Shown here one piece after another: positions 2 through 51,127 of a DNA stretch of 64,000 nucleotides. The position numbers and the translations under genes were made by a program. The notes under the pieces were generated by a model, which was not told where the DNA came from, searched no databases, and saw nothing but the letters and a program-made list of their open reading frames with translations. Location: NCBI GenBank assembly GCA_000091205.1, contig AP006502.2; one strand, 5' to 3'. Numbering within the stretch: the first letter of the stretch is position 1; every line of letters starts with the position of its first letter. The DNA is from Cyanidioschyzon merolae. Lineage: Eukaryota.

Positions 2-3000
2 ATTGTAGACTGGCGTAAAGCGCGTATCGTTTGTCGTTTTCTGCTCGTGCTTCTCAGCAGAGAGGAGGTACGTCATCTTGATCAGTTGGGGGCGTCTGTG
101 CCCAAGTCGTTGAAGGAGCGCATCGCCGAGCGCAATCGCTTTGAGTGGTCTCGTATTTTGCAAAATCGTCCGACGTACTTGCACTGGGGGGTAGCCAGGG
201 ATCACCCTGATGAGTGGACGCTACCCGAGGCGAAAACGTTTCCCCCGGGAACGATTCGTTTCGATAAGATCGCTGTACGCACCGAGTTTCCCGCCGAGCA
301 CCCAAGGATTCGCATCAACGTACCTTTCTTCGAATCTGGCAACGAGTTGCGCACGATCCGAGGAATCAAGGCAGTAGTCTACCGAGCAAAAGACCACAAA
401 TACTTTAAAGACGGTAGAAGAGATATTTTCGTGCCTGTCTGGGACTCTGTGCGGACCTGGGTCATCGACGGCGCAGGCATCGAAGAGAACGTTGCAGAGC
501 TTTCGTTGACGGAATCTGCTTTTCGGACGGCATTAGGTGTTTCACGCAGTGATTCGTACATGTCGCTTTCACGGGAAACATCCCCGGGACCGGACGCCTC
601 TGGTAGCGGGCGCTCAGCAGTGCGCCGGTCGATCTCGCTGAGCTCGGTTCGTAAGCTCAAGTCCTCAGCATCTCTTGATCGATTGGTGAAAGCCGGGGCG
701 CCACAGGATCGCTCATTAAAGGCAGTGCGCAGGATCCATACAGCGGCGACCGTTCTTTTCGAAGAACTGTTTGGGGGCGTCGGTCGCGGCGGCAGCGGCC
801 ACCTTGATGTTGTCGTGGAGGAAATGGAGCCCCAGTCCGAGTACCACATTCATATGGCGACAGATATCAGCGGATTGGCACTTCACTGGGGAGTCAGCCG
901 CAAGAAACCAGGTCAGTGGGTGCTTCCGCGTCGAGACTGGTGGCCCGCTGGCGTTACCAGCCAAGTCGATCACAAGGCTGTGCGCAGTGAGTTCGAAGCT
1001 GATCAGGATAACCCGGGCGTATGGCGCCTAGATATGTGCTTCCGCCGCGAATCCGAAGATGACATTGCAAACGGAGAGTCTTGGTTGCCGTCTGCACTAG
1101 TATTTGTTCTGTATCAAGCAGAGTACAATTTTTGGTCGAACTATCATAATGATAATTTTGTTGTACCAGTCGCACCGCCGGCGCCCTCCGTTCTTGAGGA
1201 CGTATACGCTTCGTATTTACACACGTTGCAGGAGCAGGAAAAGATGCTGGGCGATCGCGCCCAGGGCGAGGAACCAGAAACCCTGCCTGTTGGCACAATC
1301 CTGGGTCTGGAGAGACGCTCGCTCGACGACGATGGCGAGACAGTTATTTGTTTCTCCGTCGAAGAGGATGGCTTCGCGCTCCGAGTTCATGCTGACTTGT
1401 CGCCGCTCGTCATCCATTGGGGGATCGCGCGGCATCGGGTCACTGAGTTTCTGCAACCCGACGAAAGTCTCGCGGTTGAAACCAAGGGTCGGACCTACCG
1501 CTTCGAAAACAAAGCCATGCGGACCGAATTCGTGCCGGATGAGCATCATCAGGGCACCTACTATGCGGAAATCCACCTGAAGAAGGAGCATGCACCGCGC
1601 GCAGTCACCTTTGTGCTCTTTAATCCCGAGCTGAATCGTTGGTACCGCGCTGAGGGCGGCGGCAACTTTGTGCTACGAATGGATCTGGAGTCGTTCTCGC
1701 AGCTCCCAGGAAGTGTTGGCAAACACGAAGACGTCGCCCAGAAGATCATCGAGGTTGAGGTCGAGTACGGATCCTGGACGCTCATGCACCGTTACAATTT
1801 GGCGAATGATATCCTACGGAACAGCATGTCTGCTTTGGATGCGGATCTTTTGCAGATAGTCTTTGTGTGGTTACGGTATAGCTTCCTGCGGCAGCTGGAC
1901 TGGCAGCGCTCCTACAACACGCAACCGCGCCTGTTAGCGCACGCTCAGGAGCAGCTCACGACGACGCTAGCTCAGGTCTTTGTCAGTCGTCCAGATCTCC
2001 GGCTCTGGGTGCGCCTGTGTCTCTCGATGCTGGGCCGAGGCGGAGGCAACGGCCAGCGAATTCGAGACGACATCCTGCGGATCATGCACAAGCATCACAT
2101 ACCGGAAACGCCGGGTCATTTTATGGAACAGTGGCACCAAAAGCTGCACAATAATACGACTCCAGACGACGTGGCAATCTGTGAGAGTTATCTCGCATTT
2201 CTACGATCTAATGGCGACAAGAACGTCTTCTATGAGACGCTGCAAAAGCACGGCGTAACGAAAGAACGTTTGGCATCTTATGAACGTCCGATATTCGCGG
2301 AGGTGCAAACCTATCCCTGTGACACCAACAGCCTTATACACGACTTTGAGGAGTACCTTCACGTTCTGAAGAGCGTGCACTCCGGAACAGACCTGGCGGT
2401 TGTTCTGGACTATGCGCGCTGGACGCTTGATCAGGAGCTCATTAGCAAGGTTGAGCATATCCAGTCGGTGCGAGCGGAGCTCATGGCGAGTCCACAGGGG
2501 GCGCTCGAGTTCTCCTTCTTGATTGCTGAGGCGAGGAAGATGCTCCAGAGTACCTTAGAGCACGTCGAAGATCCAACGCGCGTTCGGGATATGCTGTTCC
2601 TTGACCTGGCGCTTGACGAGCTCGCTCGCTTGGCCGTCGAGAGTCAGGGGCTTGCCGACTACGTTGCCGAGACCGATGTCCAAAAAGCCTGCAATCTTTT
2701 GGTGGTTCTAGCACAGCACGTTGGATGGTCTATGCTATCCAGTGCGTTCCTGGAAACCAGTTATGATCTTGCGGCGCTGGTGTACGGTATTCAGTCGGAC
2801 GTACAATTGCAGGAGCCAGATTTCGGTCTCCGCCTCTATGCGACAATGGAGCGCCTCATGGACTGCGTCGGGCATGATGTGGTGGAACGGCTCCACCACG
2901 ACGTGCAACCCAAGGCGGTGTACATTGGCGTTGGCTGCAACATCGACCAAAAGGTTGTGACGCTTTTCTCGGAAGAGCTCATTCGGGGTCAGGCGGCCTT

Positions 3001-4483
3001 TGCACTGGCCCAAGTCCTTCGCCCGCTCATGAGGAATATTCGCAAGCAAGCTAATCTCGGAAATTGGCAGGTAATTAGCCCGGGATCATGCACTGGTCAA
3101 GGAGCGGTATTTGACGAGCTCCTGTCCATTCAGTACAAGACGTTTGCCGAGCCCACGGTAGCGTTTGTGCGCCGCATATCCGGAGAGGAGGAGATTCCCA
3201 CCGGCATGGTCGGCCTCATCACTACCGACACACTCGACATACTCTCGCATTGTGCGGTTCGGGCACGCAACGAGCATGTCGTCTTGGCCTGTTGTTTCTC
3301 CGAGGAGCTTTTTGATCAGCTCACAGAGCGATTCCGTGGTGCCTGGGTCGCCGTGCGCTCCCTAACCGATGGTTCTCTGGATTTCCAACCGATACAGGAG
3401 GGAGCTGGACGCACCACGGCGGCGGATACGACGGATGGAGCATCCGAACACGCCCAACGTCGAGCGGTATCCATGCGCTCCGATATCGAGAAAAAGCCAG
3501 TGAAATCGGTGCTTGGTATTGCGCAGTTCAACACGCAGCGTGGAGGTTCCAAGTCGAACTCGCTTGCCAAACTCATCCGCGTGATACCGGACTGGATTCA
3601 CATCCCTCCGTGCGCGTTGCTACCCTTTGGAGTTTGCGAGCAGGTGCTTGCAGAGGCACAGAATTCTGACGTGGGGGAGCGTTTCCAGCAGCTCATGGCG
3701 GAACTGGACGGAAAGGGGCCTACCGATGACTGCAGCGCCTTGCTCGCACGTTTGCGGCACTGTGTTCGGCAACTTGCACCGAGTGATACCTTCATGAAGG
3801 AGTTGCAACAGGTTCTCCAGCACGAAGGTTTCCACTCCATTGACAACCTCGATATGAGGCGCGCCTGGGAGTGTATCCTAGATGTTTGGGCATCCAAATT
3901 CAACGACCGGGCGTTTCTGGCGTTGCGCAAAGCAGGCGCTGTTGGGAAAACCTCATTGTCCTCGCTCTACATGGCAGTTTTGGTCCAGGAGGTGGTCCCT
4001 GCGGACTATGCCTTCGTCCTGCATACGAAGAATCCGTTCACTGGGGAGCCATCAGAGATCTATGGTGAATTGGTTCATGGTCTGGGTGAAGTGCTTGTTG
4101 GCAACTACCCAGGCCGTGCGCTCGGATTTACGTACTCGAAAAGCACGGGTCAAGTGCGCGTCTGCAACTACCCCAGCAAGACCAAAGCGCTTATTCCACG
4201 TGGTGGCTTGATTTTTCGCAGTGACTCCAACGGAGAGGACCTCGAGGACTTTGCTGGAGCTGGGCTCTTTGATTCCATCCTTATGCAACCAGCCGAAGAA
4301 GTTGTCGTTCGTTACCGTGAACTCAAAATTCTGCAGGACAAAGCTTACCTGGAACGTATCCTCTCAAAAATAGGAAAATGTGGGATTGAAATTGAGAGCA
4401 ATTGTGGTAACAAACCGCAGGATATTGAAGGTTGCATTTGCGGCGAGGATGTGTACGTCGTTCAATCACGTGACCAAGTCTAG
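2..4483 (+). CDS. GWD: alpha-glucan water dikinase (starch R1 / GWD), 5'-partial; the reading frame is open to the window start
   Basis: Seen: a 1478-aa uninterrupted ORF whose frame is open from position 2 (no stop before the GTG at 47). The C-terminus carries the PEP-utilising/pyruvate-phosphate-dikinase-like block MAVLVQEVVPADYAFVLHTKNPFTGEPSEIYGELVHGLGEVLVGNYPGRALGF that is typical of GWD. The N-terminal region has HWGV...W..P tryptophan blocks resembling tandem CBM45 starch-binding modules. Assignment is from established knowledge of GWD domain order. Confidence 0.88.
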   Translation: MVDWRKARIVCRFLLVLLSREEVRHLDQLGASVPKSLKERIAERNRFEWSRILQNRPTYLHWGVARDHPDEWTLPEAKTFPPGTIRFDKIAVRTEFPAEHPRIRINVPFFESGNELRTIRGIKAVVYRAKDHKYFKDGRRDIFVPVWDSVRTWVIDGAGIEENVAELSLTESAFRTALGVSRSDSYMSLSRETSPGPDASGSGRSAVRRSISLSSVRKLKSSASLDRLVKAGAPQDRSLKAVRRIHTAATVLFEELFGGVGRGGSGHLDVVVEEMEPQSEYHIHMATDISGLALHWGVSRKKPGQWVLPRRDWWPAGVTSQVDHKAVRSEFEADQDNPGVWRLDMCFRRESEDDIANGESWLPSALVFVLYQAEYNFWSNYHNDNFVVPVAPPAPSVLEDVYASYLHTLQEQEKMLGDRAQGEEPETLPVGTILGLERRSLDDDGETVICFSVEEDGFALRVHADLSPLVIHWGIARHRVTEFLQPDESLAVETKGRTYRFENKAMRTEFVPDEHHQGTYYAEIHLKKEHAPRAVTFVLFNPELNRWYRAEGGGNFVLRMDLESFSQLPGSVGKHEDVAQKIIEVEVEYGSWTLMHRYNLANDILRNSMSALDADLLQIVFVWLRYSFLRQLDWQRSYNTQPRLLAHAQEQLTTTLAQVFVSRPDLRLWVRLCLSMLGRGGGNGQRIRDDILRIMHKHHIPETPGHFMEQWHQKLHNNTTPDDVAICESYLAFLRSNGDKNVFYETLQKHGVTKERLASYERPIFAEVQTYPCDTNSLIHDFEEYLHVLKSVHSGTDLAVVLDYARWTLDQELISKVEHIQSVRAELMASPQGALEFSFLIAEARKMLQSTLEHVEDPTRVRDMLFLDLALDELARLAVESQGLADYVAETDVQKACNLLVVLAQHVGWSMLSSAFLETSYDLAALVYGIQSDVQLQEPDFGLRLYATMERLMDCVGHDVVERLHHDVQPKAVYIGVGCNIDQKVVTLFSEELIRGQAAFALAQVLRPLMRNIRKQANLGNWQVISPGSCTGQGAVFDELLSIQYKTFAEPTVAFVRRISGEEEIPTGMVGLITTDTLDILSHCAVRARNEHVVLACCFSEELFDQLTERFRGAWVAVRSLTDGSLDFQPIQEGAGRTTAADTTDGASEHAQRRAVSMRSDIEKKPVKSVLGIAQFNTQRGGSKSNSLAKLIRVIPDWIHIPPCALLPFGVCEQVLAEAQNSDVGERFQQLMAELDGKGPTDDCSALLARLRHCVRQLAPSDTFMKELQQVLQHEGFHSIDNLDMRRAWECILDVWASKFNDRAFLALRKAGAVGKTSLSSLYMAVLVQEVVPADYAFVLHTKNPFTGEPSEIYGELVHGLGEVLVGNYPGRALGFTYSKSTGQVRVCNYPSKTKALIPRGGLIFRSDSNGEDLEDFAGAGLFDSILMQPAEEVVVRYRELKILQDKAYLERILSKIGKCGIEIESNCGNKPQDIEGCICGEDVYVVQSRDQV

Positions 4484-16671: not shown

Positions 16672-17769
16672 TCAGCGCCGGCAAGTTGGCCATTTGCCGG
16701 GCGTGTCCGCAGTGGCAAGTGTTGTGGGCGAAAAGTCCTCGTCGCTCTTCAGCGCGCGCCCCGAGCCATTTTCAAACTTTTCAATACCCCTGAGAGTGGC
16801 ACATTCCAAGTAATCCATGCTCGTGAGCGTCCTCCTTTCCCTGCTTACAGCTGGGGTGCGGCACGATTCGCCGGCTTCAAACTGGGATACCATTTGTCTC
16901 TTGCAGGATCCGTCGCCACAAACGGAAAGACTCGGCGCATTGAGGGCGTCGAGCCTGCCAGAGGGATTCATCAAACTCTGGGATGGAGAATGGACCCATG
17001 GCGCATGTGCGGCGAGCGCTGTCGACTCCGTGTCGAAGATTGACTCCCTGCGACTGCTTTTCCGTGCCAATGGCACAGTTTGGTGCCCAGTTGCGGAGGT
17101 GACGCACTCAGATGCGCATCTTTCCATGGACTGCGAGGATAACGCGGTCGCAGACTGTTCACTGCCATATCTTCGAGTCGATGGCGACACGCGCTGGTTC
17201 CGCTGAGATCGCCGGACGCGCGCGCGGCGATTGTTGAACCAGGTGGTTAGTTTTGCCTCCGGTTGCTGAAATGCTCGAGCGAGACGCTGAATATCATCGC
17301 GAGATGGATACTGGTTCTCCGCATACACTGCCTTTAGCACCTGTTGTTGCTCCGGAGTGAATATTCGGGCACCTTTTTTGGTGGACGTAAACGGTTTCGG
17401 CCGACTCTGGCGGGAACTTTTTCGCTCAGGCTCGAAGTGTCGGTACTCGTCATGCGCAGTATCAGCCCCGCGCCCACCAATAGCTCCATGCGTATCCCGA
17501 GGCGATACGGGATCCGGTTTATCCCACTGGCATGCGGGTTCCGCAATCTCCATGGATTGCGGCGTCTGTGCTACAGCCACAGCAGCGGTTGCGATCATCT
17601 CGAGTCCTTTGAAGCTTTGATCGAACCGTCCAGGCAGTCGGGTCTCTCGAAGTCGATTTTGGTAGTCGAGGTTCATATCCTGCGTCGTAAACGCACCGAT
17701 TTGCAGTCCCGGGCTTCCGACTACAACTGTCCTTGTCTCGGGGAGCCCGCGGTTACCATCGCTCGACAT
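16672..17769 (-). CDS. homeodomain transcription factor
   Basis: Seen: a 60-aa homeodomain KKGARIFTPEQQQVLKAVYAENQYPSRDDIQRLARAFQQPEAKLTTWFNNRRARVRR with a WF.NRRA recognition helix. The ATG at 17769 was verified. Confidence 0.72.
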   Translation of the reverse strand: MSSDGNRGLPETRTVVVGSPGLQIGAFTTQDMNLDYQNRLRETRLPGRFDQSFKGLEMIATAAVAVAQTPQSMEIAEPACQWDKPDPVSPRDTHGAIGGRGADTAHDEYRHFEPERKSSRQSRPKPFTSTKKGARIFTPEQQQVLKAVYAENQYPSRDDIQRLARAFQQPEAKLTTWFNNRRARVRRSQRNQRVSPSTRRYGSEQSATALSSQSMERCASECVTSATGHQTVPLARKSSRRESIFDTESTALAAHAPWVHSPSQSLMNPSGRLDALNAPSLSVCGDGSCKRQMVSQFEAGESCRTPAVSRERRTLTSMDYLECATLRGIEKFENGSGRALKSDEDFSPTTLATADTPGKWPTCRR

Positions 17770-22948: not shown

Positions 22949-25524
22949 GACAGTGGGACCGACGAGGAACTAGGTGGGCCTTTGTAACAGCAGCTGCAGC
23001 AGCCGCAGCAGCAGCACAACGGGTCGCATCCGAAAAACCTCTGTACAGCGGCTCGCATTTCAGCGTCTGAGAAAACGGGTGTTCTCGCCGAGGCTAGCCG
23101 CCTGCGGATCTCGAATTCGATGTTGCTTCGGCTGCTGACAAGCGCCAGCCTGCTGCCTCATTTCATCATGAGTTTTACGTTTCTAAAAATGGATAGCTTG
23201 CATTAGATTTTGCGTTGCTGTATAGAGGCCGTTCTACACAAGGATATCATGGAAGTTCTTTCCAATCGAGGGTAATTTGCGTTCGAACCTAATCATGTAG
23301 CTGACTCCGAGTACCCGCAGACCTGCATTGGAAGAAGCTGTGCAGGATCGAAAGCTGTAAAAGATACCTATGGACACGTCGACCTAGCTCTCTGCGCTCA
23401 GCGTGCGTCGAAGTAGATGCATACAGTCGGTCGCACGAAGCTGCTTCTTTTTCCAAGTGGGTAACGTGCACTAAACCACTGCGAGATTCACATGCAACTC
23501 TGAACTTGTCGCTCTGTTGCTGCTCTTCATTTTTCTCTTCCCAACTTTTTTAAATGGTCAACTTCGGCGTTTGAGGAGAAGCAGTAAGGACTTTCGGACT
23601 CATATGCAGTTTTCAAATGCTCTGTCGTCTTTTCAGAGTGATTTCAATGACGCCTTGTCGCTGGAATTCGTCACGACCTCTGAATCAAGATCATTCGCGA
23701 CACGCTGGAACAAGGGTACCTAAAATAACCCAAATCCTTATCGGATGCATATGCACAAGCCTTTCATCTTGTTGTTTCCCGAACAACAGCATGTTCAAAT
23801 CACAAAGTCTTCATGTGTGCGATTTTGCTTTTCCAACGCAAGTTATGGGCGAAGCAATTTTCGCAGAGGTAAAGCCTTTTTCGACCGACCACCACCTATT
23901 GACGTCAGCTTCCTCCTGCACACCTCAAGTCTGAGAGACTGCCCCATAAACCTGCATCGCGTCAGCTCCTCGGTTCTCTTCTTCAGCACTATATATCGTC
24001 GGATACTGAAGGTGACGTTGGAGTCTCGTTTCACGAACTCCTCGCATATATTGCCGCTTGTTGAATTCACCCATGCAAGGATTGCCAGAACACGAGTACT
24101 CAGTACCATTGACTGCTCTGTCAGCTCTCCGTACTTTTCTATCGCGCGAAGCGCTCCGCTGCCTTCTCTCTATCTCGATGTTCTGAAGTGTACACCGCAG
24201 CTCATCCCTTGGATTTCTTATTTCTTCAAATGGCGCGCTTCTTTATGCCGTTAGATGAGGAGCTAACCGGAGCGAGAAGGGCTTGCAGACGAAGGACGCA
24301 ATGTGGCCAGGTACCAATGTGTGCTGAACGCTGCAGCGACTCGCCCCGTTGAGCATTAAAAACGTCTCATAATAGAAAAAAACACTTTCTATGGGGCTCA
24401 ACCACGGATTATATCGAGGAATGAAAAGCAGCTCTATTCTCCGATCGAATCAGCAAACATTCGAACGCAAGGGGAATGGTGAAATACCAAGCCGTACAAC
24501 CGGACGACGTCGTCAGACGTCAGGGGAAATTTCTTCAACGATTCGGTACAGTGTGTGCTGTTCTACGAGCCTTCTCTCTGAGCGAAACTGCGGCCGCCAA
24601 ATGAATCCACTGCAGCTCAAACAGTTGATGATGTCCTCGCTCTCATCAAGTTCGATCATACATACAGCTGGCTCCATCTCCGCGACTACCCATGTACGCC
24701 CCGACCATTTCGGCCAAAGAAAGTCGCATCGTCTGAAAAAGACAGAGCTACGTCTCTGTGCTTCGTGCCGATCGGGACGTTCCGGGAACGCTGTCGTTGC
24801 GAATTCGATACAAGACGGCTGTGCATGAACCAGGACTTTATCGCGACTGCATGCCAGTGCATTCAGGATCACACGAATTAGCTGGCGAGAAAAACAGATA
24901 GAGGTGATGGGTATCATCGTCGCTTTCCCCTTCCCTAAAGTAATCAACGGGTCGTTTTTCTACCAGTGAACGCAAGCACACTTTGAGTATATCTGGTTTC
25001 GGTGCGGATCGCATGTACTTGCTTCTTTATTTCAGTGTTCCTCGTCCATCTGAATACTGTGGTGAACCGTACCTGAACGAGGAATGCAGTCCACCTTGCA
25101 CCGTTCAGTAAAGAATATATATCTAACATTCTATTCGTCTACGATCTATACAGCACATTGCTTCTACATCTCGACCTTCTGCTATACACATCAACATAGC
25201 ATACGAATACGCATAGCAGGAATGGAGCCTCATGGAGTCGCGCTGGTGAGCAGAGAGCGTCTCGAGCGTCCGCATGGGATGCGTTTCTGGATGGACAGAA
25301 TTCGAACGACCAAGAACGGCAGTGCAGTACAGTGCAGTTTGGGAATCCTCAGCTAGCCGACTTGGGGCTTGTGAACGTGTGTGAGCGGATGCGCATACGC
25401 ACCGCTCCATACATAAAAACGAACCTTCTTTGCCATATTCATGCTTCGTGGTCCGTATACTCTGCACTGCAGTGCACGGGTACCGAACAATATGCAACTC
25501 TAGTTCTGCTTGCACGCTGCCCTC

Positions 25525-28500
25525 ATGGCTGATCGTGGTACCTCCGTCTCCTCGTTCGAGTCGGAGACATTTGGAGACAGCACGCTAAGAGGCAGCAGCG
25601 AACTCAATAATGGACAGGAACGAGGCACGCGCACACGTCGAAGCAGTGCACGTCACCGCAGTCGTTTGTCGAGTTTCTTTGCTCCACCACAGATTCGAAG
25701 CGATCCAAAGGAAGCCAAGTTCCTCCTTGAGACGCTATCCTCGAAGCAGGTAACTTGGCAAATTCTCAACATATGCAGTGCAATCGTGCTCTCCGTCACC
25801 TACACGCTAGCAATGAGTCTGTTTGCACGCCGTTTCGAAGCGGCACTCCCGGCACTCAACCTCGTTGACCGCGTCGTCGTGTACTGCTTTTGCGTGCTCC
25901 AGCTTACTTTCACGATCGTCTACTTTTTGCGTCTCTATCGGTATGGATGGATCCGTTGCACCTTCGAAATGCGCAGCTGCTTCCTACAAGGTCTATTTAT
26001 ATTCTTTACGATGAATATTATAGGCAATATTGCACGAACGATATCGGAAGCGAGCGGCACCACGATCGCCATTCTCTATGTCTCCGACCTGGTCTGGCAA
26101 TGGTTCTGGATATTTGGTTTTTATGGACACGCCATGGCTATTCTACGACTCTATCGTGATATGAAGGATCGCCACACGTTTCTAGAACGAAACCGCGTGG
26201 TATTTGGTCTCTGTTTGATCATCGCCGCCGTGGAGACAGCCATTTGCGGCTGGTCTCGAACGACGTTAGGACTCACCTGGCCGGGCATGTTGGTTCAGTT
26301 CGCTATGCGTGGACACCAACAACAAGCGGCCTACTCGCTTACGTTCGCGCTCGTGGTTACCATGCGCATTTTCCTCGATGGCTGGATTGCCATGGAGCTC
26401 TACCGCGCCTTCCGAGTGCTCCAGCAGCTGCCGTATACCTGTTGTCATCACAAACAAATGGGTGCTCGTTTCTACCGTGTCTTTACTGCGATATCCTATA
26501 TATTCCTGATTGCAAACGATACCATCGCAGTGGGCCTGGTACCATTACCAAGCGCGAACGCGTCCCTCGATGGCGTACCGTTGCGGTTGCTGGGTATTGC
26601 ACGATTCAATGGTGGTGCCTTCGCGATGCTCTTTACATGGTCGGTGCTCCTGCTCTATGTGCATTTACCTCCGACAGTGCTGGGTGTTTGGCTGCCCTGG
26701 ATCGTTGCGCTGGCTCCGGACCCAGCTGCATATCAAGAAAAGCGAGCCCCACAAAGGAGCGTTTCCTCCGAGTGGGAGTTGTCCGCGCACAGCGCCAGCC
26801 AGGCGGCACCGTGGCCAGCGGACGCACTGGATGCAGAGCGAGAGCTGCGCAAAGCAAACCTCTACTACCAGACTGAGCAGGAAGCACTGCGAAATGGAGA
26901 CAGCTGGCTCTCGCGCTCACTTGTCCTCGAGACGCATGTTTTGATCTTCAACATGGCGTACCTGTCCTATCGACCGTGGCATGACCCGCATATGTATGCA
27001 GAGATGTTCAATCATTATGGTGTGGGCGAAATGGACCCCCTGCAAGCACGAGTCGTGCGGCATATCTCCAGCGCCGTTACAGATGTACATGTGCTCGTCA
27101 TTGACTTGGCGGATAGGATTGTGGTGAGCTTTCGCGGTACCAAAAGCACCAGAAATTTACGCACAGATATGAATGTCCGACGGGTTCCTCTCGAGGAGCA
27201 CCTGCATGCACGTGAATGTCCGCAAATACAGGATACGTGGCGCTTGAGCGCCTGCAGCAAACACGGTCAACGCGGGTCGTTGCGGGAGTCACCGGCGAAA
27301 GCGACTGTCGACGGTACAACTCGAATGCCTCGTACGACGAATGCTGTAAGCACCACTGCCTTGGCTGCCGGGCGTAGCGGCACCTCGGCTGCGACTTGTT
27401 CGCAAATACCGCCCGCAACACATAGCAAGCGCGAAATAGATTCGACTAGGAAGCACCAGGCATCAGTGGAGGCCTTTGCCAAGGACGATTCGGATATAGA
27501 GCGCGGTCTTGATGATGCCCTGTCACAGGAACTCGGTGTGGATCCTGGAGGCCGTTTTGCACATCGTCGATGGTGGCAGTATATGCTGAGCGTACGCGGG
27601 ATCCGTTCCCTGCGCTTTGGTGATTTTCGCGCTCAGGCTGGTGACGATTTTTCGTATCTCATAGGGCGACGAGTGCCTACAATGGTGCACGATGGATTTT
27701 TGCACGCCTATTTATCCGTGCGTGAAGAGTTAATGGAGACGCTGAAACCGCTTGTTGCAAAGCCCTCGAGCACTGCACCAACTGCAGTGGATGCGGCTTG
27801 CGCGCCCTTGAGCAGCACCTGCGGCGATGCCACTTGTGGTGTCGCTACCAGCCTGGATAGGCGCGTGCAACCATCGAACCGCTTTCCCGAGGTGTCCAGT
27901 GCGGATATTCATGGCGGTTGTGAACACGGGCAGCAGCAACAGCAGCTGAGCTTAGCGGGTACAGAGACCGCAGCGCGGTGTCGAAGCGAAACTGCTACAG
28001 CAGCAGCAGCAGCAGCAGCAGCAGATGCGAGCGAAGCGCAACCGTGTAGTGCGATGAACTCCTTGGATAGTGCATCTTGCAACCACAAACCGGTGATCTT
28101 TTGAGGTCACTCTCTCGGCGGGGCTCTGGCAAGCATCGCTGCCCTCGATATGACGTGTTTTGAGAATTCACAGTCGTTGCGTCTGTCATCGGATCTGGTG
28201 ATGTGTGTGACTTTTGGGTCGCCTCGAGTCGGGAATCGCGCTTTCGCTGCAGCGTTCCAGCGACATGTGCCGTTTTCATTCCGATGGGCAGCGGTCGGCG
28301 ATATCGGGACGAAACTGCCTTTCTGGGGTTATGAGCATGTTCCGGTCAAGATGATGCTGGATCCGTTGTTGGGGAGCATTCTCATGGATCCCTCGATCAT
28401 CGAGGAGTCCATGGTAGCGTTCCGGAACGCTTTGGATGCGCACCTGCGACCCGCATATATCCAGGGGTTTGAGCGCTGGTGTCGGCGCTACCACCCCCGC

Positions 28501-28578
28501 TGGAATGTGCAGTTCTGGGATTTCCACGACGTGTTTGATGACCCCGCCCTAGGTGCTGCTTTGGAAAGCATCACATGA
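25525..28578 (+). CDS. class-3 (fungal-type) lipase with an N-terminal polytopic membrane domain (DAG-lipase-like architecture); the catalytic domain is interrupted by an in-frame TGA at 28102-28104
   Basis: Seen: an N-terminal 350-aa multi-TM region. Lipase_3 blocks are then in the usual order but widely spaced: VVSFRGTKSTRNLRTDMN, VHDGFLHAYLSVREEL, then (after the stop) GHSLGGALASIAALD, VTFGSPRVGNRAFA, VGDIGTKLP and YEHV. The ORF at 28150-28578 is in the same frame as the ORF at 25510-28104. Two low-complexity inserts, including an Ala12 run, separate the conserved blocks. Confidence 0.7.
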
Positions 28579-29572
28579 TGAATGCATGACCTATGCAAGC
28601 GCATGGCTGCTGGAGCGTGCCACTTGTCCTCAAGGTCCGCTACGCTTCGCAAACGGGCGCAAGTGCGCTACCCACAGAAGCACACCAGCATCACGAAGGT
28701 GAGCAACGACATGTCGGGTACGCGAGGCACGCTTGAGCATCAGCCGAATGGTGTCTTGGATCACGCCCGGTGCGAGGTCGCTCAAATATGTGGCTCTCGC
28801 CACACGCTCCACCTCGACGACCTGCAAAAAAGTACACCTCTGCGAATCATGCTCCAGAGGTATGCATCAAAGGTTCCGCCCGATGTTCGTCGAATCGTCA
28901 TGCAGACTGGTCGGTGGATGAATGCAGCACCTTCATCGCCAAAGTGAAACGCGTTGACGTCCGAGTGGAGAGCGTGAACCGTCCCCGGTCGACTGGACGC
29001 GGAATCCGTCCGAATTCCCGGTAGCGAAATAGACGCGATCCGCCACTGGCTACCCTGAAAAGCGTCTCTGGCGGGTACTTCTGCGAAATCCAGAATGAGG
29101 CATGCTGCGCTCTGTCCACTAGTCTGCAGGTCTGGCTCTGACACTGCCGCATCGATGCTGGAGTTTAAGCTGCGCCCCAGTGATCGACGCATGCTGCGGT
29201 TGCTGAGATTGGTCTCTCGATAGTCAGTCGTAGTGCCTCAACCAGCGCCAATATTCCTGCTGAATTCATGCTTGTCGCGAGTACGCCTTTGAGCGCGTTT
29301 GCCGACAGAGGCCGGCGCCGTGGTGCTCGCAGCACAGCAAGCGATCATGTGCTCTTTGAGCAGCTACAGACAAGCACCACTTTTGCAGCGCATGGTACAC
29401 GCGATGGACGCGAGCGTAGCTTCCAACGATCCGCGATCTAGTCCTGAGGTATTCCGGCGGCGATAATCACCACCCAGTATCATGACTGAAACGCTGTAAA
29501 CGATGCATCATGCGATATCCACAGGGCCAGGGCACGGCGATGATTCAGCGGCAATCTCGCTCAAATGCTAGC

Positions 29573-30241
29573 TTACTGAGGATTCTCCAGGGTTTCGTTT
29601 TTGTTGGATGATCGTCGCCGATGATGTCGTCTTTTCTTTCTCACGGAAGACGCGTTCTTGGCCGCTGGGTGCACGTCATCCTCGTGCTCTGGCTCTAACG
29701 ACGACGACGACGACGAAACGGATGCAGACCTCCCGTGGTCGCGCTTTGCAGAGGCGCCATCCTGCGCTCCACCAGGTGCCCTCTTCTTCGAGCGCATGCG
29801 TTCGGGTTCAAGTCTCGCATCAGAGGTATCCAATGCCAGCATCAAACGCCGCTCGTCGCGTGTGCAGAGCTCCTCGCCAAGCCCTAGTTTCAAGAGCAAG
29901 AGTCGAAACCGACTTTCTGGGCGACGTAAGATACGTGACATCGACCGTGACTGCGAACCGAATACACCATCTGCAGTTGCCGCGTCTGCAAGCTCTTCCA
30001 GATGCTCCCAGGCAACGACCTGGCGGTATCCCGGAGTCTTGGATGCCTGGTCCACGATCTTCGCAACTTGCCTCACAAAAGGACTGCCTTCAGCCTGCAG
30101 TTCATGCTCGCCTTTCCGCCAGTAAGACATAGCGACTGATGCGACGCCAAATACTGAGTTGGGTGAGTCGACGCGTGCTGCCAGTTTGCTTTTGCTGTTC
30201 GAGATCGGCAAGGAATCGCCTGGCAACACGGTCCATGGCAT
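29573..30241 (-). CDS. hypothetical protein, Ser-rich with a basic C-terminus (KKRRHHRRR, NLS-like)
   Basis: Seen: a 222-aa ORF with a verified ATG at 30241. No recognisable domain. Upstream on the same strand are two further ORFs in other frames (30102-30365 and 30431-30904). Confidence 0.35.
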   Translation of the reverse strand: MPWTVLPGDSLPISNSKSKLAARVDSPNSVFGVASVAMSYWRKGEHELQAEGSPFVRQVAKIVDQASKTPGYRQVVAWEHLEELADAATADGVFGSQSRSMSRILRRPESRFRLLLLKLGLGEELCTRDERRLMLALDTSDARLEPERMRSKKRAPGGAQDGASAKRDHGRSASVSSSSSSLEPEHEDDVHPAAKNASSVRKKRRHHRRRSSNKNETLENPQ

Positions 30242-31037
30242 CGTCCGATTCTATTTCCCAGTCACAAGACTCGTTCTCTATGTCTTGCTCTAAAGATGTA
30301 AGCGACTTGTCGAGTACCTCAAGTGCCTTGGCTGCCAGCCCTGCACACTGCATCCCAAAACGCACTTGCTCCTCGGGTGTCAGTTTCGCTTGGACGAGTG
30401 CTCGCAGCTCTGCAGGTGATGCAAACGTGCTCAGATTACCGGCTTCCTTGGCTTTGCATCACCTTTTATGCAGCTTTCCTCTCTCTCGATGCCCGGGTTC
30501 AGCTTTGGCTGCCATGAGAGCTGCTGCGCGTGCCGTTGCAACAGAGATGCGAGCGTGGTGGTTAGGAGGAGGTCAGAAAACTGAAACAATCCATATGATG
30601 GTCTCTCCAAAGCGTCAAAGTCTTCAAGGCAGTAACCGGACTTGTCGCTTCCGCTGTCAATCAGCAGAAAAGCGCATAGCGTACGCCCCGTGCCGCACAG
30701 AGGAAGCAGCACGTTGGTTTCGAAGATCGATAGAAGACGTTTTTGATAAACAATTCGCCTCTGGAAACACCACCAAACGCCTTGCAAAAGAGAAACGCTG
30801 GAAAGCCAGTGTACAAGAGTGGCGTTTCTCACACCGTCCGTCGTAGACCGAATGTCTACCCATCGATGTACAGACGCCTGTGCCGGCGTTCCGCAACTGG
30901 CCACCTACTACTGGTTTCAACTTCTTCTCGTATAACTCCATTTTGGGAGGTTGCCCCGCAAAGTTGGCTCTCGCCAACTCCGGGGGTCTTCTTTCCAGTA
31001 CTGCACACCTCCTTATACTGATGGCGGCGTTAAAGTC

Positions 31038-39390: not shown

Positions 39391-41468
39391 GAAAGAGGGC
39401 GCTCAGACACTGGCGGTCGTTCGAGCGGACGTGCAGTCTGGGACTATGCACGGCAACGCTCGTAGGTGACAGCGGTGCAGCGTGTGACTCGCCTTTGCGT
39501 CGTTTGATTCGGAGCTAGAATGTTTGCGTGTGGGTGCCAAGTTGTGCGAAAGATCCGATCACGTCCTCAGATATCGAATACGACACTTGCTGGCGTTCTG
39601 CAGCGTAACCGCACGCTCGGTGCTGGCGCAGCAGCCGACGCTTCTAGCGGTGGCGCACCAGCCACGGGTCGCTGCCAGGCGGAGGCGGGCCCCCATCGCC
39701 AGGGAGAGCGAGTCCACATAAGCTCGATTTTGTCTATAATGTTATGTTTGTTCAGGTTCTAATCTGATCTGCATGCACAATGGAGTGCTGAGCTGCACGC
39801 TCCATGCATGCCTGGCGATGTAGTTCCGAACGCTTCTAGGTGTCCAGCATCGAGAGCCCAGGTACAGCAATGGGGGATCACGGATTCCTTCGTACTTCTA
39901 GGATGATCGGTGGTCTGGTCGCGGGGGTCTCTTCGACGCCCGGCTGCTGGATTTCCTGGCGTCACCGATATCAAGATGCTTCACGACGCTTTCGTACGTG
40001 TGTTCGTCAACCAACCGATACAGTGACACCATGATACAGTTCATTCGCACGTATCTCGACTCTTCTCCATTTCTGACATGCAGTATGTTTAAATCACGAA
40101 ATCTCTACATGATCGATCTTATCTTTTGGGGCTCAAGACAACTCGTGTGCGCACTGCGAGTCGTTCAGCGGGGCCCGCAACGCGAGAAACCCCGACGTGT
40201 CGTCCTCTGACGCATTGTTCACGAGCGCTTGCTGAACGTCCACTGGCCTTGTCACGTCAAATGATCGATTGATTTCGGGAAACAAATCCTCCTTTCGTGA
40301 TGACCAATGAAGAACCGACATTCAGTACCAGCGTGATGCTTCTCAGGGCGCGATGGTGCTGCTGGTGCTGGTGCTGCTGCCAGAAGCGCTCGTCTCTCCT
40401 GTTTTCGCATGGAAAAGGGTACTGGACGCGGACTGGGGTCATCGCAGCACTCGGTACCAGTAGGGCATGCGCCACCGCTACGTACGAGACAAGCGTCCAC
40501 GGATCGGAGTCTATCGGCTTGTTCTTCGGTTTGAACGTACGTTTCTGTACACGTTTCATGGCGGACTAGACCGCATTCCATAACTCCTCCGCCGAATGGA
40601 ACAGCGTGTGCTTGCACCCACAGCCGACAGAATACTCGCTGAGGATATCGCTCAGCTGAAGCGCATGATCCCAGTGTAACGTACGGGGCTCGGGAACGGA
40701 AGCGAGCGCCTCGCTGGCTGTTTCCAGTATGCGTCAAGGGCATCCACCGAGTGATGCCGCGAGCGTTCACGCGCTGCAGGACAGCTCGCGGGGGCAGCGT
40801 TGTCGAGGACGTATTCGATCACCTGCTGACCACAGCCGAGTGTCACTGGTGTGAAGGACGCACTCAGCTTGTGTACGAAGAAGACATGGGAACTGTGACT
40901 TGCGTCTATGCATGCAATACGTGAAAAACTGCAGGACGCTGTGAACTCGGGACTTGAGCGCTACCGTCATCACCCCTTGACTGCTGAAAACGATTTTAGA
41001 GGACAAGAGACGTCCAAGGTATCGCAATCCGCTCGTAAGAGAACGGTGAAGAATCTATTTACAGAGCAAATCCCTCAAATACCTATATTGTCCACAATCG
41101 AAAATCGCGATCCTTTATTGTACACGTCCTTGTTACTCAGTTGCACTTGTTTCGTGCGCCCACCCCGCCGCCCCGCAAACTCCAGGTCACCCCAAAGCAC
41201 CCACACATACGACTACAAAGCCTTGCATTAGCCCCCCAGCCTCGTGTTCTCGATGCATCGCGCGTGCGGTCTGCGGCGCGCCGCGTTGCAACGGCTCTCG
41301 CTGCGACGCATCCTCCATTGCAACGCTGCTCAGCTCCCGTACGCTTCTTCGACGCGTATAGGGACCAGGTTTGCACTAGGACTCGTTCCTCGCTAGCCTG
41401 GATAGGGCAGCGGAAACTGAAAGGGTTTCAGCCTCTCGCTTGAAAGACGAGTCATTACGATCGTGCTG

Positions 41469-44024
41469 ATGCCTTTAGCGGCCTTGGGGCAACGCGCAGC
41501 GCTTTTCGCAACTTCAGCAACGACGACACGTAGTCTGTTGGGCAGGTTACGGGAGTCGGGTCCGCAGGATCATCGTTTCGTTTCCACGAGCACACGCTTG
41601 GTCCACCAGTCATCGCAAACGTTCGGTGCAAGGCGGGCTACTTTGCAGCAGCTCGCTCTATTCAAGGCGGTCGGCACTGGGGGGTCGTACGGCGTCCCTG
41701 GCGGCAAGCAGACGCTGAAACGGCAGCTGCACGCGTCCACACCCATGGCCAAGGTGCCGCTTTCACGCTATGAACCGGATACGAGTCTCGAAGAGGTCTA
41801 TGAGCGCATTCGCCAGAATGTCGCGGTGGTTCGGAAACGTCTCGATCGGCCGCTTACGTTGGCGGAGAAGATCCTGTACGGACACCTGTCGAATCCGGAA
41901 ACAGCAGAGCTCGTTCGCGGCAAGTCCTATTTACACTTGCATCCGGATAGAGTGGCGATGCAGGATGCAACAGCACAAATGGCAACGCTGCAGTTCATGT
42001 CGGCGGGGATTTCGCGCACCCAGGCACCAACCACCATCCATTGCGATCATTTGATTACCGCCCAGAGTGGGGCCAAGGAGGATCTCGAACGAGCAGTTCA
42101 GCAGAATCGTGAAGTGTACGACTTTCTGTCAACAGCGGCCGCCAAGTATGGCATGGGTTTTTGGAAACCGGGTTCTGGTATCATTCATCAGATCATACTG
42201 GAGAACTATGCTTTCCCGGGCGGGCTTATGATCGGTACCGACTCGCACACGCCGAATGCCGGCGGTTTAGGGATGGCGGCTATCGGTGTCGGGGGCGCCG
42301 ACGCTGTGGACGTTATGGTTGGGCTCCCGTGGGAACTCAAGGCACCGCGGGTCATCGGCGTGCGCCTCACTGGCAAACTCCACGACTGGACTGCTCCGAA
42401 AGACGTTATTCTCAAGGTTGCGGGAATCCTTACGGTCAAGGGCGGCACCGGCAGCATCATCGAATACTTTGGCCCCGGTGTCGATTCGATTTCCTGCACG
42501 GGCATGGGTACCATATGCAACATGGGTGCCGAAATCGGTGCGACAACCTCGATTTTTCCCTACAGCAAAAGAATGGAGGCGTATCTGAAAGCCACTCGTC
42601 GTGACGCGATCGCGGAACTGGCCAACAAGTACGTCGACCTGCTGCGCGCCGACGAGAACGCAGTCTACGATCGTCTGATAGAAATCAACCTGAGCGAGTT
42701 GGAGCCGCATGTGAACGGTCCCTTCACACCCGACTTGGCGCATCCGTTGAGCAAGCTCAAGGACGCTGTCAAGCAAAACGATTGGCCTGCTGAGATCCGG
42801 GTCAGCCTGATAGGCTCGTGCACCAACTCATCCTATGAGGACATGATGCGAGCGGCTTCGGTCTGCAAGCAGGCAATCGATCACGGTGTCAAGGCGAAGA
42901 CGATTTTCCATATCACTCCGGGCTCAGAGCAAGTTCGTTCGACGATTGAGCGCGACGGTATGATACAGCTGTTTGAAGCGATCGGTGGTGTTGTTCTCGC
43001 GAATGCATGCGGGCCCTGTATCGGCCAATGGAATCGACAGGATGTACCAAAGGGCGTCAAAAACACCATTATCACTTCGTATAATCGCAACTTTGCGCAG
43101 CGCAATGACGGGAATCCGCTTACACATGCGTTCATGGCGAGCCCGGAAATCGTGACTGCGTTTGCGCTCTCCGGACGACTCGATTTCAATCCGGTTACGG
43201 ATGTGCTGACGGATCAGTCAGGAAAGCCGTTCAAACTGCAGAGTCCAAGCGGGGATGAGTTGCCGGCTCGCGGCTTTGACCCCGGACGGGACACGTTCCA
43301 GGCACCTCCGGGGGACGGCTCGAGCGTCGCTGTTCGCATTGATCCGCAAAGCGAACGGTTGCAACAGCTGGAAGCGTTCCCGGCTTGGAACGGCAAAGAT
43401 ATCGAACGGGCGTTCATTCTCCTCAAGGTCAAGGGCAAGTGCACCACGGATCATATCTCCATGGCGGGGCCGTGGCTCAAATACCGCGGCCATCTGGACA
43501 ACATTTCGAACAATCTCTTCATTGGAGCTATCAATGCGGAAAACGGCAAAGCGAACCTCGTGAAGAACCAACTCAACGGTGAGTATGGCCCGGTGCCCGC
43601 AACTGCTCGGGCCTACAAGCAAGCCGGCATTCCGTGGGTCGTGGTCGGCGACGAAAACTACGGCGAGGGGAGCTCGCGGGAGCACGCCGCCCTGGAGCCC
43701 CGCTATCTCGGTGGAGTCGCGATCATCGCGAAAAGCTTTGCACGTATCCATGAGACCAACCTGAAGAAACAGGGTATGCTGCCGCTTACGTTCCAGGACC
43801 CCGCGGACTATGACAAGATCGACCCTTCTGATCGGGTCAGTATCCTCGGACTGACCAAGTTCCGTCCAGATGAACCGTTAACGTTACGCGTTGAAAAGGC
43901 GGATGGGTCGCAGCTTGAGCTCAAAGTCAACCATTCGTTCAACGAGGCTCAGATCGAATGGTTCCGTCACGGTAGCGCCTTGAACAAGATTCGGGCGGAC
44001 CTGGTAGCAGCCGGCAAAGCCTGA
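41469..44024 (+). CDS. ACO2: aconitate hydratase, mitochondrial type, with an N-terminal presequence
   Basis: Seen: [74 protein letters not shown], the Cys ligands [10 protein letters not shown] and [10 protein letters not shown], and [12 protein letters not shown]. The first ATG is at 41469 ([27 protein letters not shown], Arg/Ser-rich). Confidence 0.92.
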
Positions 44025-50242: not shown

Positions 50243-51127
50243 ATGTACGGCGAGACCGCAGCACCTACGTTCACGAGTCTTCAGGCTGGCGTATTCTCAC
50301 AAAAACAGAAGCGATCCATATTATTGGACAATAAGCTCATACATCAAGCGATGAAACTGATGCGCTGGTTCCGCTCGGCGGATTTGCGGTACGAGATAGG
50401 TGAGCGACTTGTTACGAGGCACCCGTCAACCCAGCGTGTCCCGGTGGCGCTGTCGCACGCAGACAGGCGAAGAGCCCCCAGTCTCTGCGCGCTAACCAGC
50501 GCGAGCACGTCTGCATCTAGCGTCCACAGCAGCTTGCTGCGATACGTGCAGCGTGACCTGGAGGGACGACCTCTTGGGCGCGTTTTATCGAACACGGGAG
50601 CGATCAGAGGCTTTTCGGCAACAAGCGCAGGTGACGCAACGCTGGAGACTGCACCGCTGGACGAGCTGCGGCGGGGACTGGGCGCTCCGGATCTACAGCT
50701 CGAAGACTCGCTGGATACCGGTGACGGGAGACCTGCAAAGCGCGACGCGAGTTTCACGGTGCGCCTCTTGCAGTACCTGGTGCAGCGCTACCGAGGCCGT
50801 GTTCATCCAAACCCGCTTGCAGTGGCGCAAAGCGCTACAGTTAGGGACCTGCTCTACCTCTTTGCGAAACTTGATCGGGATCTGGCGGTTCGCGAAGGTA
50901 GGGACACCGCCGCATGGCGAGCCTGGCGCTTACAGCGTTTCTTCGGCGTCTCCAGCATGGACGAGATACCACCGAACGTAACGATTGACGCTCGACTCTT
51001 GCCGGATGCACCTTCACCGGGTTCCGTTCCGTATAACCGAAGAAAAATCCGTGAGCGTTTACGTCGCGTGCTGGAGTCTGCGCGTGCATCGACGTCGCCT
51101 CAGAATGAGCACGAACCTGGGGCATGA
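50243..51127 (+). CDS. hypothetical protein (294 aa), transcribed divergently from the P-loop gene
   Basis: Seen: an ATG at 50243 and an uninterrupted ORF with balanced composition. No domain recognised. Confidence 0.35.
   Translation: MYGETAAPTFTSLQAGVFSQKQKRSILLDNKLIHQAMKLMRWFRSADLRYEIGERLVTRHPSTQRVPVALSHADRRRAPSLCALTSASTSASSVHSSLLRYVQRDLEGRPLGRVLSNTGAIRGFSATSAGDATLETAPLDELRRGLGAPDLQLEDSLDTGDGRPAKRDASFTVRLLQYLVQRYRGRVHPNPLAVAQSATVRDLLYLFAKLDRDLAVREGRDTAAWRAWRLQRFFGVSSMDEIPPNVTIDARLLPDAPSPGSVPYNRRKIRERLRRVLESARASTSPQNEHEPGA

Follow-up and report, generated by a model that had tools for sequence, protein, structure and literature searches.

A premature TGA directly before the GHSLGG motif of a membrane class-3 lipase gene in Cyanidioschyzon merolae, probably a common null allele

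Structure of the locus and identity of the lipase

In the window analysed here, a 64-kb stretch (64,000 nucleotides) of DNA from the hot-spring red alga C. merolae, positions 25510-28575 form a single reading frame (first ATG at 25525) whose sole break, in both sequence and translation, is a TGA at 28102-28104, so that the two ORFs found there are indeed one frame, as the original prediction had it. The resulting segments of 866 and 157 codons, with one stop between them, are the sole large split ORF pair in the window. Elsewhere in the window, 50243-51127 exactly matches CYME_CMT563C, which identifies the window as part of chromosome 20 of C. merolae 10D. When the 859-aa and 142-aa products of the lipase locus were looked up by exact sequence, no annotated protein was returned; the same holds for four other ORFs of the window, and the look-up is therefore uninformative on the annotation status of the lipase. 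A literature search for a gene identifier (CMT5... plus lipase) found nothing.

All the features described below lie on the plus strand. The N part of the gene (25525-28101) runs from the first ATG to the Phe codon that precedes the stop, 859 codons in all, and encodes about eight hydrophobic segments (residues 80-400, by hydropathy analysis) followed by the first half of the class-3 lipase fold, with the motifs VVSFRGTKS... and VHDGFLHAY; the fold is interrupted by two low-complexity inserts. The orthologues P0002 and P0003 are colinear with the N part from the N terminus onward. Close to its 3' end lies a (GCA)n microsatellite encoding poly-Ala (27997-28024), whose length differs between strains and which is the junction of alternative arrangements in environmental contigs. 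Around the premature TGA (28102-28104) the protein reads ...CNHKPVIF*GHSLGGALASIAALD, and GHSLGG starts directly after the stop codon. The C part (28105-28575; 157 codons) continues in frame, is open in strain 10D and contains GHSLGG (Ser codon at 28111-28113), FGSPRVGN, the Asp of GDIG (28300-28302) and a putative catalytic His in DAHLRPAY (28441-28443). It ends at the natural terminator TGATGA (28576-28581), and the orthologues stop at the same residue, likewise with TGA. The C part looks about 80% similar to the orthologues, as judged by eye on aligned residues, which would be well above the 57-58% identity of the whole proteins.

Translated conceptually, with X in place of the stop, the gene matches Pfam Lipase_3 (PF01764) with E=5e-22 and 78.8 bits against a cut-off of 22, and the profile match runs across the TGA. 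This match and the hydrophobic segments bear out the assignment to a transmembrane class-3 lipase, and the gene is, judged from its sequence, a single-exon gene for a predicted polytopic-membrane enzyme of this class. In the alignment to solved fungal lipases, GHSLGG and GDIGTKLP fall in register with GHSLGG and the catalytic-Asp motif DIVPHVP of 6a0w, and the TGA aligns with the Thr of VIVTGHSLGG, which places the stop, as predicted, at the position preceding GHSLGG in Lipase_3 proteins. The further claim that the catalytic elements are kept downstream stands for the Ser, FGSPRVGN and the Asp, which are all present, the Ser and the Asp also being aligned, while the alignment stopped short of the His, which is accordingly putative. 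Since the Ser, the Asp and the putative His are all encoded 3' of the TGA, no uninterrupted polypeptide carries the triad.

Origin and frequency of the TGA and the lesions that accompany it

At the site of the stop, the 57-58%-identical orthologues carry TGT (L002) and TGC (L003), and TGC (Cys) is also found in five environmental contigs that are 97-99% identical to the window (L004, L007, L013, L025, and L026). Orthology is supported at the L002 locus by a shared homologue of the 3' neighbour ORF. As read from these alignments, the ancestral codon is TGC (Cys) and the change is a C to A at 28104; the derivation of the stop from a Ser codon by a C-to-G change (TCA to TGA), proposed at the outset, does not hold, because both the orthologues and the five close alleles have Cys (TGC or TGT). 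The same TGA as in the window occurs in 18 independent environmental contigs from about 14 samples, in old and new assemblies, although such metagenome contigs may be mosaic consensus sequences and some are visibly scrambled (L026). TGA thus predominates in wild C. merolae-like populations, in which the intact TGC is still segregating. It follows that the suggestion of a strain-specific nonsense allele was right as to the allele and wrong as to its confinement to one strain, given 18 TGA and five TGC contigs. In a neighbour-joining (NJ) tree the TGC haplotypes are nested among the TGA haplotypes, with no clean single origin of the TGA, and diversity around the TGA shows no trough; these two observations indicate that the TGA allele is old or recombining.

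Three independent additional lesions are found on TGA haplotypes only, and two of the three are on contigs of the alternative 'arrangement B'. Specifically, a 2-bp GA insertion after 26046 (26046-26047) frameshifts the N part in L001, L008, and L010, which all carry TGA and come from three assemblies; it is absent from strain 10D, and the out-of-frame N terminus of P0001 is consistent with it. A second premature stop lies at 28177-28179, where L009 and L012 have TAG in place of the TTG (Leu) of 10D, and L011 has lost 2 bp at 28306-28307, which frameshifts its C part. The N part is intact as an ORF in 10D, L015, and L017 and is missing from the contigs of arrangements B and C; most TGA haplotypes, like 10D, have an intact C part. 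The original view that this is not an old pseudogene applies to strain 10D, while in other TGA haplotypes a second lesion is already present. The coding sequence has frameshifting indels (2 in about 3.06 kb) at a rate similar to that of indels in the non-coding flanks (2 in about 2.6 kb).

The polymorphism of the two parts is not uniform. In the N part, the ratio of nonsynonymous to synonymous changes (N:S) is 40:20 (neutral expected nonsynonymous fraction 0.72, p=0.20), the conserved VHDGF block has 7:1, and radical replacements occur at residues conserved in the orthologues (W191G, W389C, D723G, and I514S). In the C part, segregating sites are nearly as dense (0.051) as in the 3' intergenic DNA (0.060), and N:S is 12:11, a nominal nonsynonymous deficit (p=0.03); for the states on TGA haplotypes only it is 8:11 (p=0.005), both values resting on κ-corrected binomial tests with very small counts. 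The pN/pS of the C part (0.39) against that of the neighbouring DOP1-like gene (0.38) is not discriminating. Such a deficit would be expected if the C part were still translated, and it can also reflect old pre-stop polymorphism shuffled by recombination, or small numbers.

Interpretation of the stop codon

Very probably, the TGA is a genuine germ-line nonsense mutation, a common null allele of a gene in early pseudogenisation, and is neither recoded nor spliced; the disabling mutation and the intact ancestral state are both confirmed outside the reference assembly, by the 18 TGA and the 5 TGC contigs. A TGC (Cys) has mutated to TGA in a single-exon membrane lipase gene, translation would most likely terminate at 28102-28104, and the 859-residue product would be catalytically dead, because the Ser nucleophile, the Asp and the His are all missing from it; the C part, being downstream of the stop, is presumably untranslated. 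The TGA allele is common in wild C. merolae-like populations with TGC still segregating, and the gene would have become dispensable, different strains then gaining independent frameshifts or a second stop. These later lesions are the reason why the gene appears dispensable and in early pseudogenisation. Probably no full-length protein is made, and the loss of the enzyme would be neutral or tolerated.

The frame is continuous on either side of the stop, as it would be if the TGA were a sequencing or assembly error or lay within a small spliced intron and the mature mRNA encoded an intact lipase, but this is next to impossible. An error, one of the alternatives first considered, is ruled out by the 18 environmental contigs, assembled independently and drawn from both old and new assemblies, that share the TGA. 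The splice-like signals invoked for the intron do exist, as a polypyrimidine-AG-like sequence near the stop and a GTAAGC, but the GTAAGC starts at 27346, not 27345, and the AG is 28104-28105. Moreover, across HKPVIF-C-GHSLGG the orthologues and the TGC alleles align colinearly, the site being occupied by one codon, and the removal of 27346-28105 (760 nt, not a frame-preserving interval) would shift the frame, destroy GHSLGG and delete the conserved VHDGFLHAYLSVREEL block. The C. merolae genome has only 27 introns (PMC4829280), and the colinearity of the orthologues, the frame arithmetic and this rarity together refute the intron. A genome-wide reassignment of UGA is rejected as well: the gene itself terminates in TGATGA, which makes TGA an ordinary stop in C. 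merolae, several other long ORFs of the window end in TGA, and the search for other large split ORF pairs across the 64-kb window, which returned none, argues in the same direction. It is very unlikely that the 859-residue membrane fragment retains a non-catalytic role and/or that the C part is translated from the ATG at 28150 or 28201. The intact N-part ORF in 10D, L015, and L017, the open ORFs from 28150 (142 aa) and 28201 (125 aa), which metagenome annotators have called as genes, and the nominal constraint signal in the C part would agree with such products. However, both internal starts exclude GHSLGG, which makes lipase activity impossible for the proteins they would give, and the N part has a nearly neutral N:S with radical changes, is frameshifted in three contigs and is missing from the contigs of arrangements B and C.

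It is unlikely that a near-cognate tRNA (Cys, Trp, or Arg) reads through the UGA at a low level, which would yield some full-length active lipase and make the allele a hypomorph with a C part under selection. Such readthrough would account for the open C part in 10D and in most TGA haplotypes, for the nominal deficit of nonsynonymous polymorphism there and for the high frequency of TGA on diverse haplotypes; near-cognate insertion of Cys at UGA, which is established in yeast, would also give back the ancestral residue. Nevertheless, the context is UUU-UGA-G, with a G at +4 (UGA-G is a strong termination context), UUU upstream and no readthrough motif, and no stimulatory RNA structure follows, as the fold of the 120 nt that begin at the stop is no more stable than that of shuffled sequences (z=0.35), so that the readthrough raised as an alternative in the original prediction receives no positive signal; in addition, the N part is nearly neutral in N:S with radical changes at conserved residues, and several TGA haplotypes tolerate frameshifts and a second stop. 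An extremely improbable alternative is that the UGA encodes selenocysteine (Sec), in which case the lipase would be the selenoprotein so far missing from C. merolae. The pairing of a TGA with Cys in orthologues and alleles matches the classical Sec/Cys signature, the C part of 10D is unbroken, and C. merolae retains Sec machinery (tRNA-Sec, EFsec, SBP2, SecS, and SPS2) with no selenoprotein found, for which lineage-specific genes or unusual SECIS elements have been suggested (Lobanov et al. 2007, PMC2375036). Against it, PSTK is reported missing (Liang et al. 2019, PMC6627142) and no selenoprotein genes were found (Jiang et al. 2020, PMC7539508). Rfam at the gathering threshold gave no SECIS or other match in the whole window, Rfam covariance models at E<=10 gave no SECIS in 28000-31000 and a spurious lncRNA match only, and a loose AUGA/AA/GA pattern-plus-fold scan of 28105-29700 gave no SECIS, its one match lying inside the coding sequence with the wrong structure; a crude SECIS pattern over the whole window, with 211 matches against about 170 expected, is uninformative. 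The 3' intergenic DNA is as variable as elsewhere and holds no structured conserved island, its longest invariant stretch (29059-29142) being unstructured (z=0.58). Furthermore, because Cys is ancestral, any SECIS would have to be a de novo acquisition; the residue, which is Thr in other class-3 lipases, precedes the nucleophile Ser by three positions and is not a redox site; and the frame 3' of the UGA is broken in some carriers (the TAG in L009 and L012, the 2-bp deletion in L011), with the N-part frameshift also tolerated on TGA haplotypes. That the UGA is decoded, whether as Sec via an unconventional SECIS or by efficient Cys/Trp readthrough, and that the lipase is still made, is highly improbable; the sole positive hint comes from the 157 codons beyond the stop, in which purifying selection is weakly indicated.

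Significance and comparison with known systems

As a plain nonsense allele, the TGA is of modest practical importance. In the annotation of 10D, the locus should be treated as a disrupted lipase gene and not as an error, an intron-containing gene or two ORFs, and metabolic models and lipid engineering in C. merolae should not count it as an active lipase. The locus offers a gene caught while being lost, whose intact allele coexists in hot-spring populations with several alleles that were broken independently. The occurrence of the stop on many haplotype backgrounds is a hint of recombination in a lineage that is generally considered clonal. It would be far more important only if the stop were decoded, since this bears on the question of the orphan Sec machinery, and the evidence presented here is against decoding; in the Sec version, the lipase would be the first selenoprotein in an organism that has Sec machinery and no known client gene (PMC2375036).

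With the lipases of Rhizomucor miehei and Rhizopus (PDB 1tgl, 6a0w), the C. merolae protein shares the motif order FRGT, VHxGF, GHSLGG, FGxPRVGN, and D-I-x-x-x-P, and PDB matches to lipases of this type reach E ~1e-11. Unlike in these enzymes, the C. merolae frame contains a stop three codons ahead of the Ser, at a position that is Cys in the C. merolae orthologue group and Thr in the solved lipases; its lipase domain is split by two long low-complexity inserts and is preceded by the domain of about eight hydrophobic segments, which has no Pfam match. The membrane-anchored sn-1 diacylglycerol lipases (DAGL alpha/beta), in which an N-terminal transmembrane block precedes a Lipase_3 catalytic domain that carries a large regulatory insert, resemble the C. 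merolae protein in architecture, the only feature by which they are likened here, and have 4 transmembrane segments against its approximately eight hydrophobic ones.

Eukaryotic selenoprotein genes of the Sec/Cys-pair type likewise have an in-frame UGA opposite Cys, in a host that retains most of the Sec machinery (PMC2375036), but the C. merolae locus differs from them in that no SECIS was found in the scans described above, the position is not a redox one, Cys is ancestral, and carriers tolerate extra lesions. The locus also shares features with polymorphic (segregating) pseudogenes caused by a single nonsense mutation: one disabling substitution coexists with a segregating intact allele, the ORF is otherwise kept, some null haplotypes bear secondary lesions, and constraint may be relaxed. 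In contrast to these, the null allele of C. merolae is in the majority over many hot-spring samples and fixed in the laboratory strain used as reference, and the region 3' of the stop retains a weak residual signature of constraint.

The lipase reading frame and its genomic setting

The lipase frame is open from 25510 to 28575, with the first ATG at 25525 (MADRGTS...) and a TGATGA double stop at 28576-28581, and its sole interruption is the TGA at 28102-28104, in ...CNHKPVIF*GHSLGGALASIAALD. The sequence (read over 27000-28800) and the translation (25510-28581) thus bear out the original prediction that two ORFs form one frame, split by an in-frame TGA before GHSLGG. The conceptual protein of 1017 residues, with X placed at the stop, has about eight hydrophobic segments in residues 80-400 and a Pfam Lipase_3 match that spans the stop (78.8 bits against a cut-off of 22). 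Aligned with both low-complexity inserts taken out, it is colinear with solved fungal class-3 lipases: FRGT, VHxGF, GHSLGG, and FGSPRVGN line up, as does the Asp motif (GDIGTKLP versus DIVPHVP), and the stop coincides with the Thr of VIVTGHSLGG. A scan of the 64-kb window for long open segments paired across a single stop yielded no second comparable case.

An exact match between the ORF at 50243-51127 and CYME_CMT563C, from strain 10D of the hot-spring red alga Cyanidioschyzon merolae, places the window on chromosome 20. The window has a GC content of about 55%, carries genes on both strands, including those for alpha-glucan water dikinase (47-4483, plus strand), a homeodomain protein (16672-17769, minus strand), aconitase (41463-44024, plus strand), TCP-1, and TAF2, and contains, over its full 64 kb, no tRNA or other Rfam family at gathering threshold; its gene content fits a compact, nearly intron-less eukaryote. 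The 3' neighbour of the lipase gene, a Ser/Arg-rich ORF of 222 aa (29573-30241, minus strand), is a real, syntenic gene, since a 46%-identical homologue adjoins the lipase orthologue in the outgroup sequence L002. Among six sequences, this ORF is unusually variable (18 nonsynonymous and 14 synonymous differences, 32 indel columns, and one stop-type difference).

Origin and distribution of the stop codon

Searching with the joined protein returned three clusters. Two of them are the orthologues P0002 and P0003, with identities of 57-58%, which read HKPVIFCGHSLG across the stop site with the codons TGC and TGT; the adjoining homologue of the 3' neighbour ORF in L002 supports orthology. In the third cluster, at least 90% identical, P0001, P0012, and P0014 terminate at ...HKPVIF, and P0015 and P0016 continue past the site with Cys. 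At the nucleotide level, 18 of 23 close-relative contigs (97-99% identity), from about 14 samples, carry TGA, and the other five (L004, L007, L013, L025, and L026) carry TGC. The stop therefore arose from TGC by a C-to-A change at 28104, and not from a Ser codon by the proposed change of TCA to TGA. The suggestion of a strain-specific nonsense allele holds for the nonsense allele but not for its restriction to 10D, and the recurrence of the same TGA in 18 contigs excludes a sequencing error at 28104.

The small intron suggested in the original prediction, which pointed to a GTAAGC, fares no better. In orthologues and in TGC alleles, a single codon flanked by conserved residues occupies the site, and excision of the 760-nt interval between GTAAGC at 27346 and AG at 28104-28105 shifts the frame, destroys GHSLGG, and deletes the conserved VHDGFLHAYLSVREEL block; only 27 introns are known in C. 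merolae (PMC4829280). That the TGA is a sequencing error or lies inside an intron can thus be dismissed almost entirely. Reassignment of UGA is rejected: the lipase gene's own terminator, at the end point of the orthologues, is TGATGA, and TGA also closes several further long ORFs of the window.

Probable decay of the lipase gene

Very probably, the TGC-to-TGA change turned a Cys codon of a membrane class-3 lipase into a stop and so created a natural null allele, now common in the species and fixed in the reference strain, of a gene at an early, multi-allelic stage of pseudogenisation; later lesions on TGA haplotypes would continue the decay. Small additional disabling lesions have been seen on these haplotypes only: a 2-bp GA insertion after 26046 (L001, L008, and L010, three assemblies from old and new pipelines), which explains the out-of-frame N terminus of P0001, a second stop at 28177-28179 (TTG to TAG; L009 and L012), and a 2-bp deletion at 28306-28307 (L011). 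The coding sequence has frameshifting indels at about the frequency of indels in flanking non-coding DNA (2 per ~3.06 kb and 2 per ~2.6 kb). Intergenic polymorphisms put kappa at ~2.9, from which a nonsynonymous fraction of 0.72 is expected under neutrality. The N part is compatible with this expectation (40 nonsynonymous and 20 synonymous changes, p=0.20); in the conserved VHDGF block the ratio is 7:1, and W191G, W389C, D723G, and I514S alter residues that the 57%-identical orthologues conserve. Moreover, the C part of 10D has changed at sites where the orthologues show little or no variation (derived V-to-M at 28351, S-to-L at 28370, S-to-A at 28429, and H-to-P at 28544 replacements), and its density of segregating sites (0.051) is close to that of adjacent intergenic DNA (0.060).

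All alternative junctions fall at a (GCA)n microsatellite (27997-28024). In one arrangement (L009 1-3946, L011 1-3032, L012 1-3968, and L025 1-634), unrelated DNA carrying a minus-strand ORF of at least 1144 aa, not present in the window, is joined at the repeat to the C part and a shared downstream flank; since four old and new assemblies show this arrangement, and it occurs with TGA as well as with TGC, it is probably real, as a true rearrangement or a partial duplication. In another (L005, L006, and L013), 23014 is joined directly to 27997, with CAG/GCA repeats at both places (22987-23014 and 27997-28024). This would be a 4983-bp deletion taking the whole N part, although its confinement to older JGI assemblies makes a repeat-mediated chimera possible. 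If real, both arrangements are further independent routes of gene destruction. L026 is locally scrambled (in 1-131, pieces of 28079-28157 and 27641-27695 precede 27851-28930) and holds a TGA fragment plus a TGC copy, and the C terminus of P0011 is an unrelated peptide after ...CGDATC; these oddities are either assembly artefacts or further rearranged alleles.

Other observations sit less easily with simple decay. In 10D and most TGA haplotypes, the C part remains an open frame, and its small counts lie nominally under the neutral expectation (12:11, p=0.03; 8:11, p=0.005, when only states on TGA haplotypes are counted), with a pN/pS of 0.39, on par with the neighbouring DOP1-like gene (0.38). 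This low ratio alone keeps alive a low-level decoding of the stop; programmed readthrough, however, finds no backing in the UUU-UGA-G context or in the 120 nt from the stop, which are no more stably folded than shuffled sequence (z=0.35), and leaky readthrough is improbable. Residual function of the lipase fragments is slightly less probable still. The constraint signal may come from polymorphism that predates the stop or from recombination with TGC haplotypes, and the simplest reconciliation also invokes small counts and the partly mosaic consensus nature of the metagenome contigs. TGA occurs on many haplotype backgrounds (28027-28800, 16-23 contigs), all four allele combinations are seen with nearby sites (e.g., 28104 with 28133), and a neighbour-joining tree nests TGC haplotypes among those with TGA, which reflects either recombination within wild C. 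merolae-like populations or mosaic consensus contigs. No diversity trough surrounds the TGA.

The stop codon and the selenocysteine machinery of C. merolae

The lipase site pairs TGA with Cys, the classical signature of selenocysteine. Against this reading, no SECIS was found by Rfam in 28000-31000, even at E<=10, or by a permissive AUGA/AA/GA pattern-plus-fold scan of 28105-29700, and the 3' intergenic region, with 59 variable sites in 991 nt, varies no less than other regions and has no structured conserved island. Moreover, Cys is ancestral, so that a SECIS would have needed a de novo origin; the residue is structural rather than redox (Thr in other lipases), and the secondary lesions fit poorly. 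Selenocysteine is thus very improbable. Lobanov et al. (2007) reported SBP2, EFsec, SecS, SPS2, and tRNA-Sec in C. merolae with no selenoprotein, and raised the possibility of lineage-specific genes or of atypical SECIS elements (PMC2375036); later surveys again recovered no selenoprotein (PMC7539508) and reported PSTK as missing (PMC6627142). Given this orphan machinery, a selenocysteine in the lipase would, if true, be remarkable, but the stop is best seen as a real feature with an ordinary explanation.
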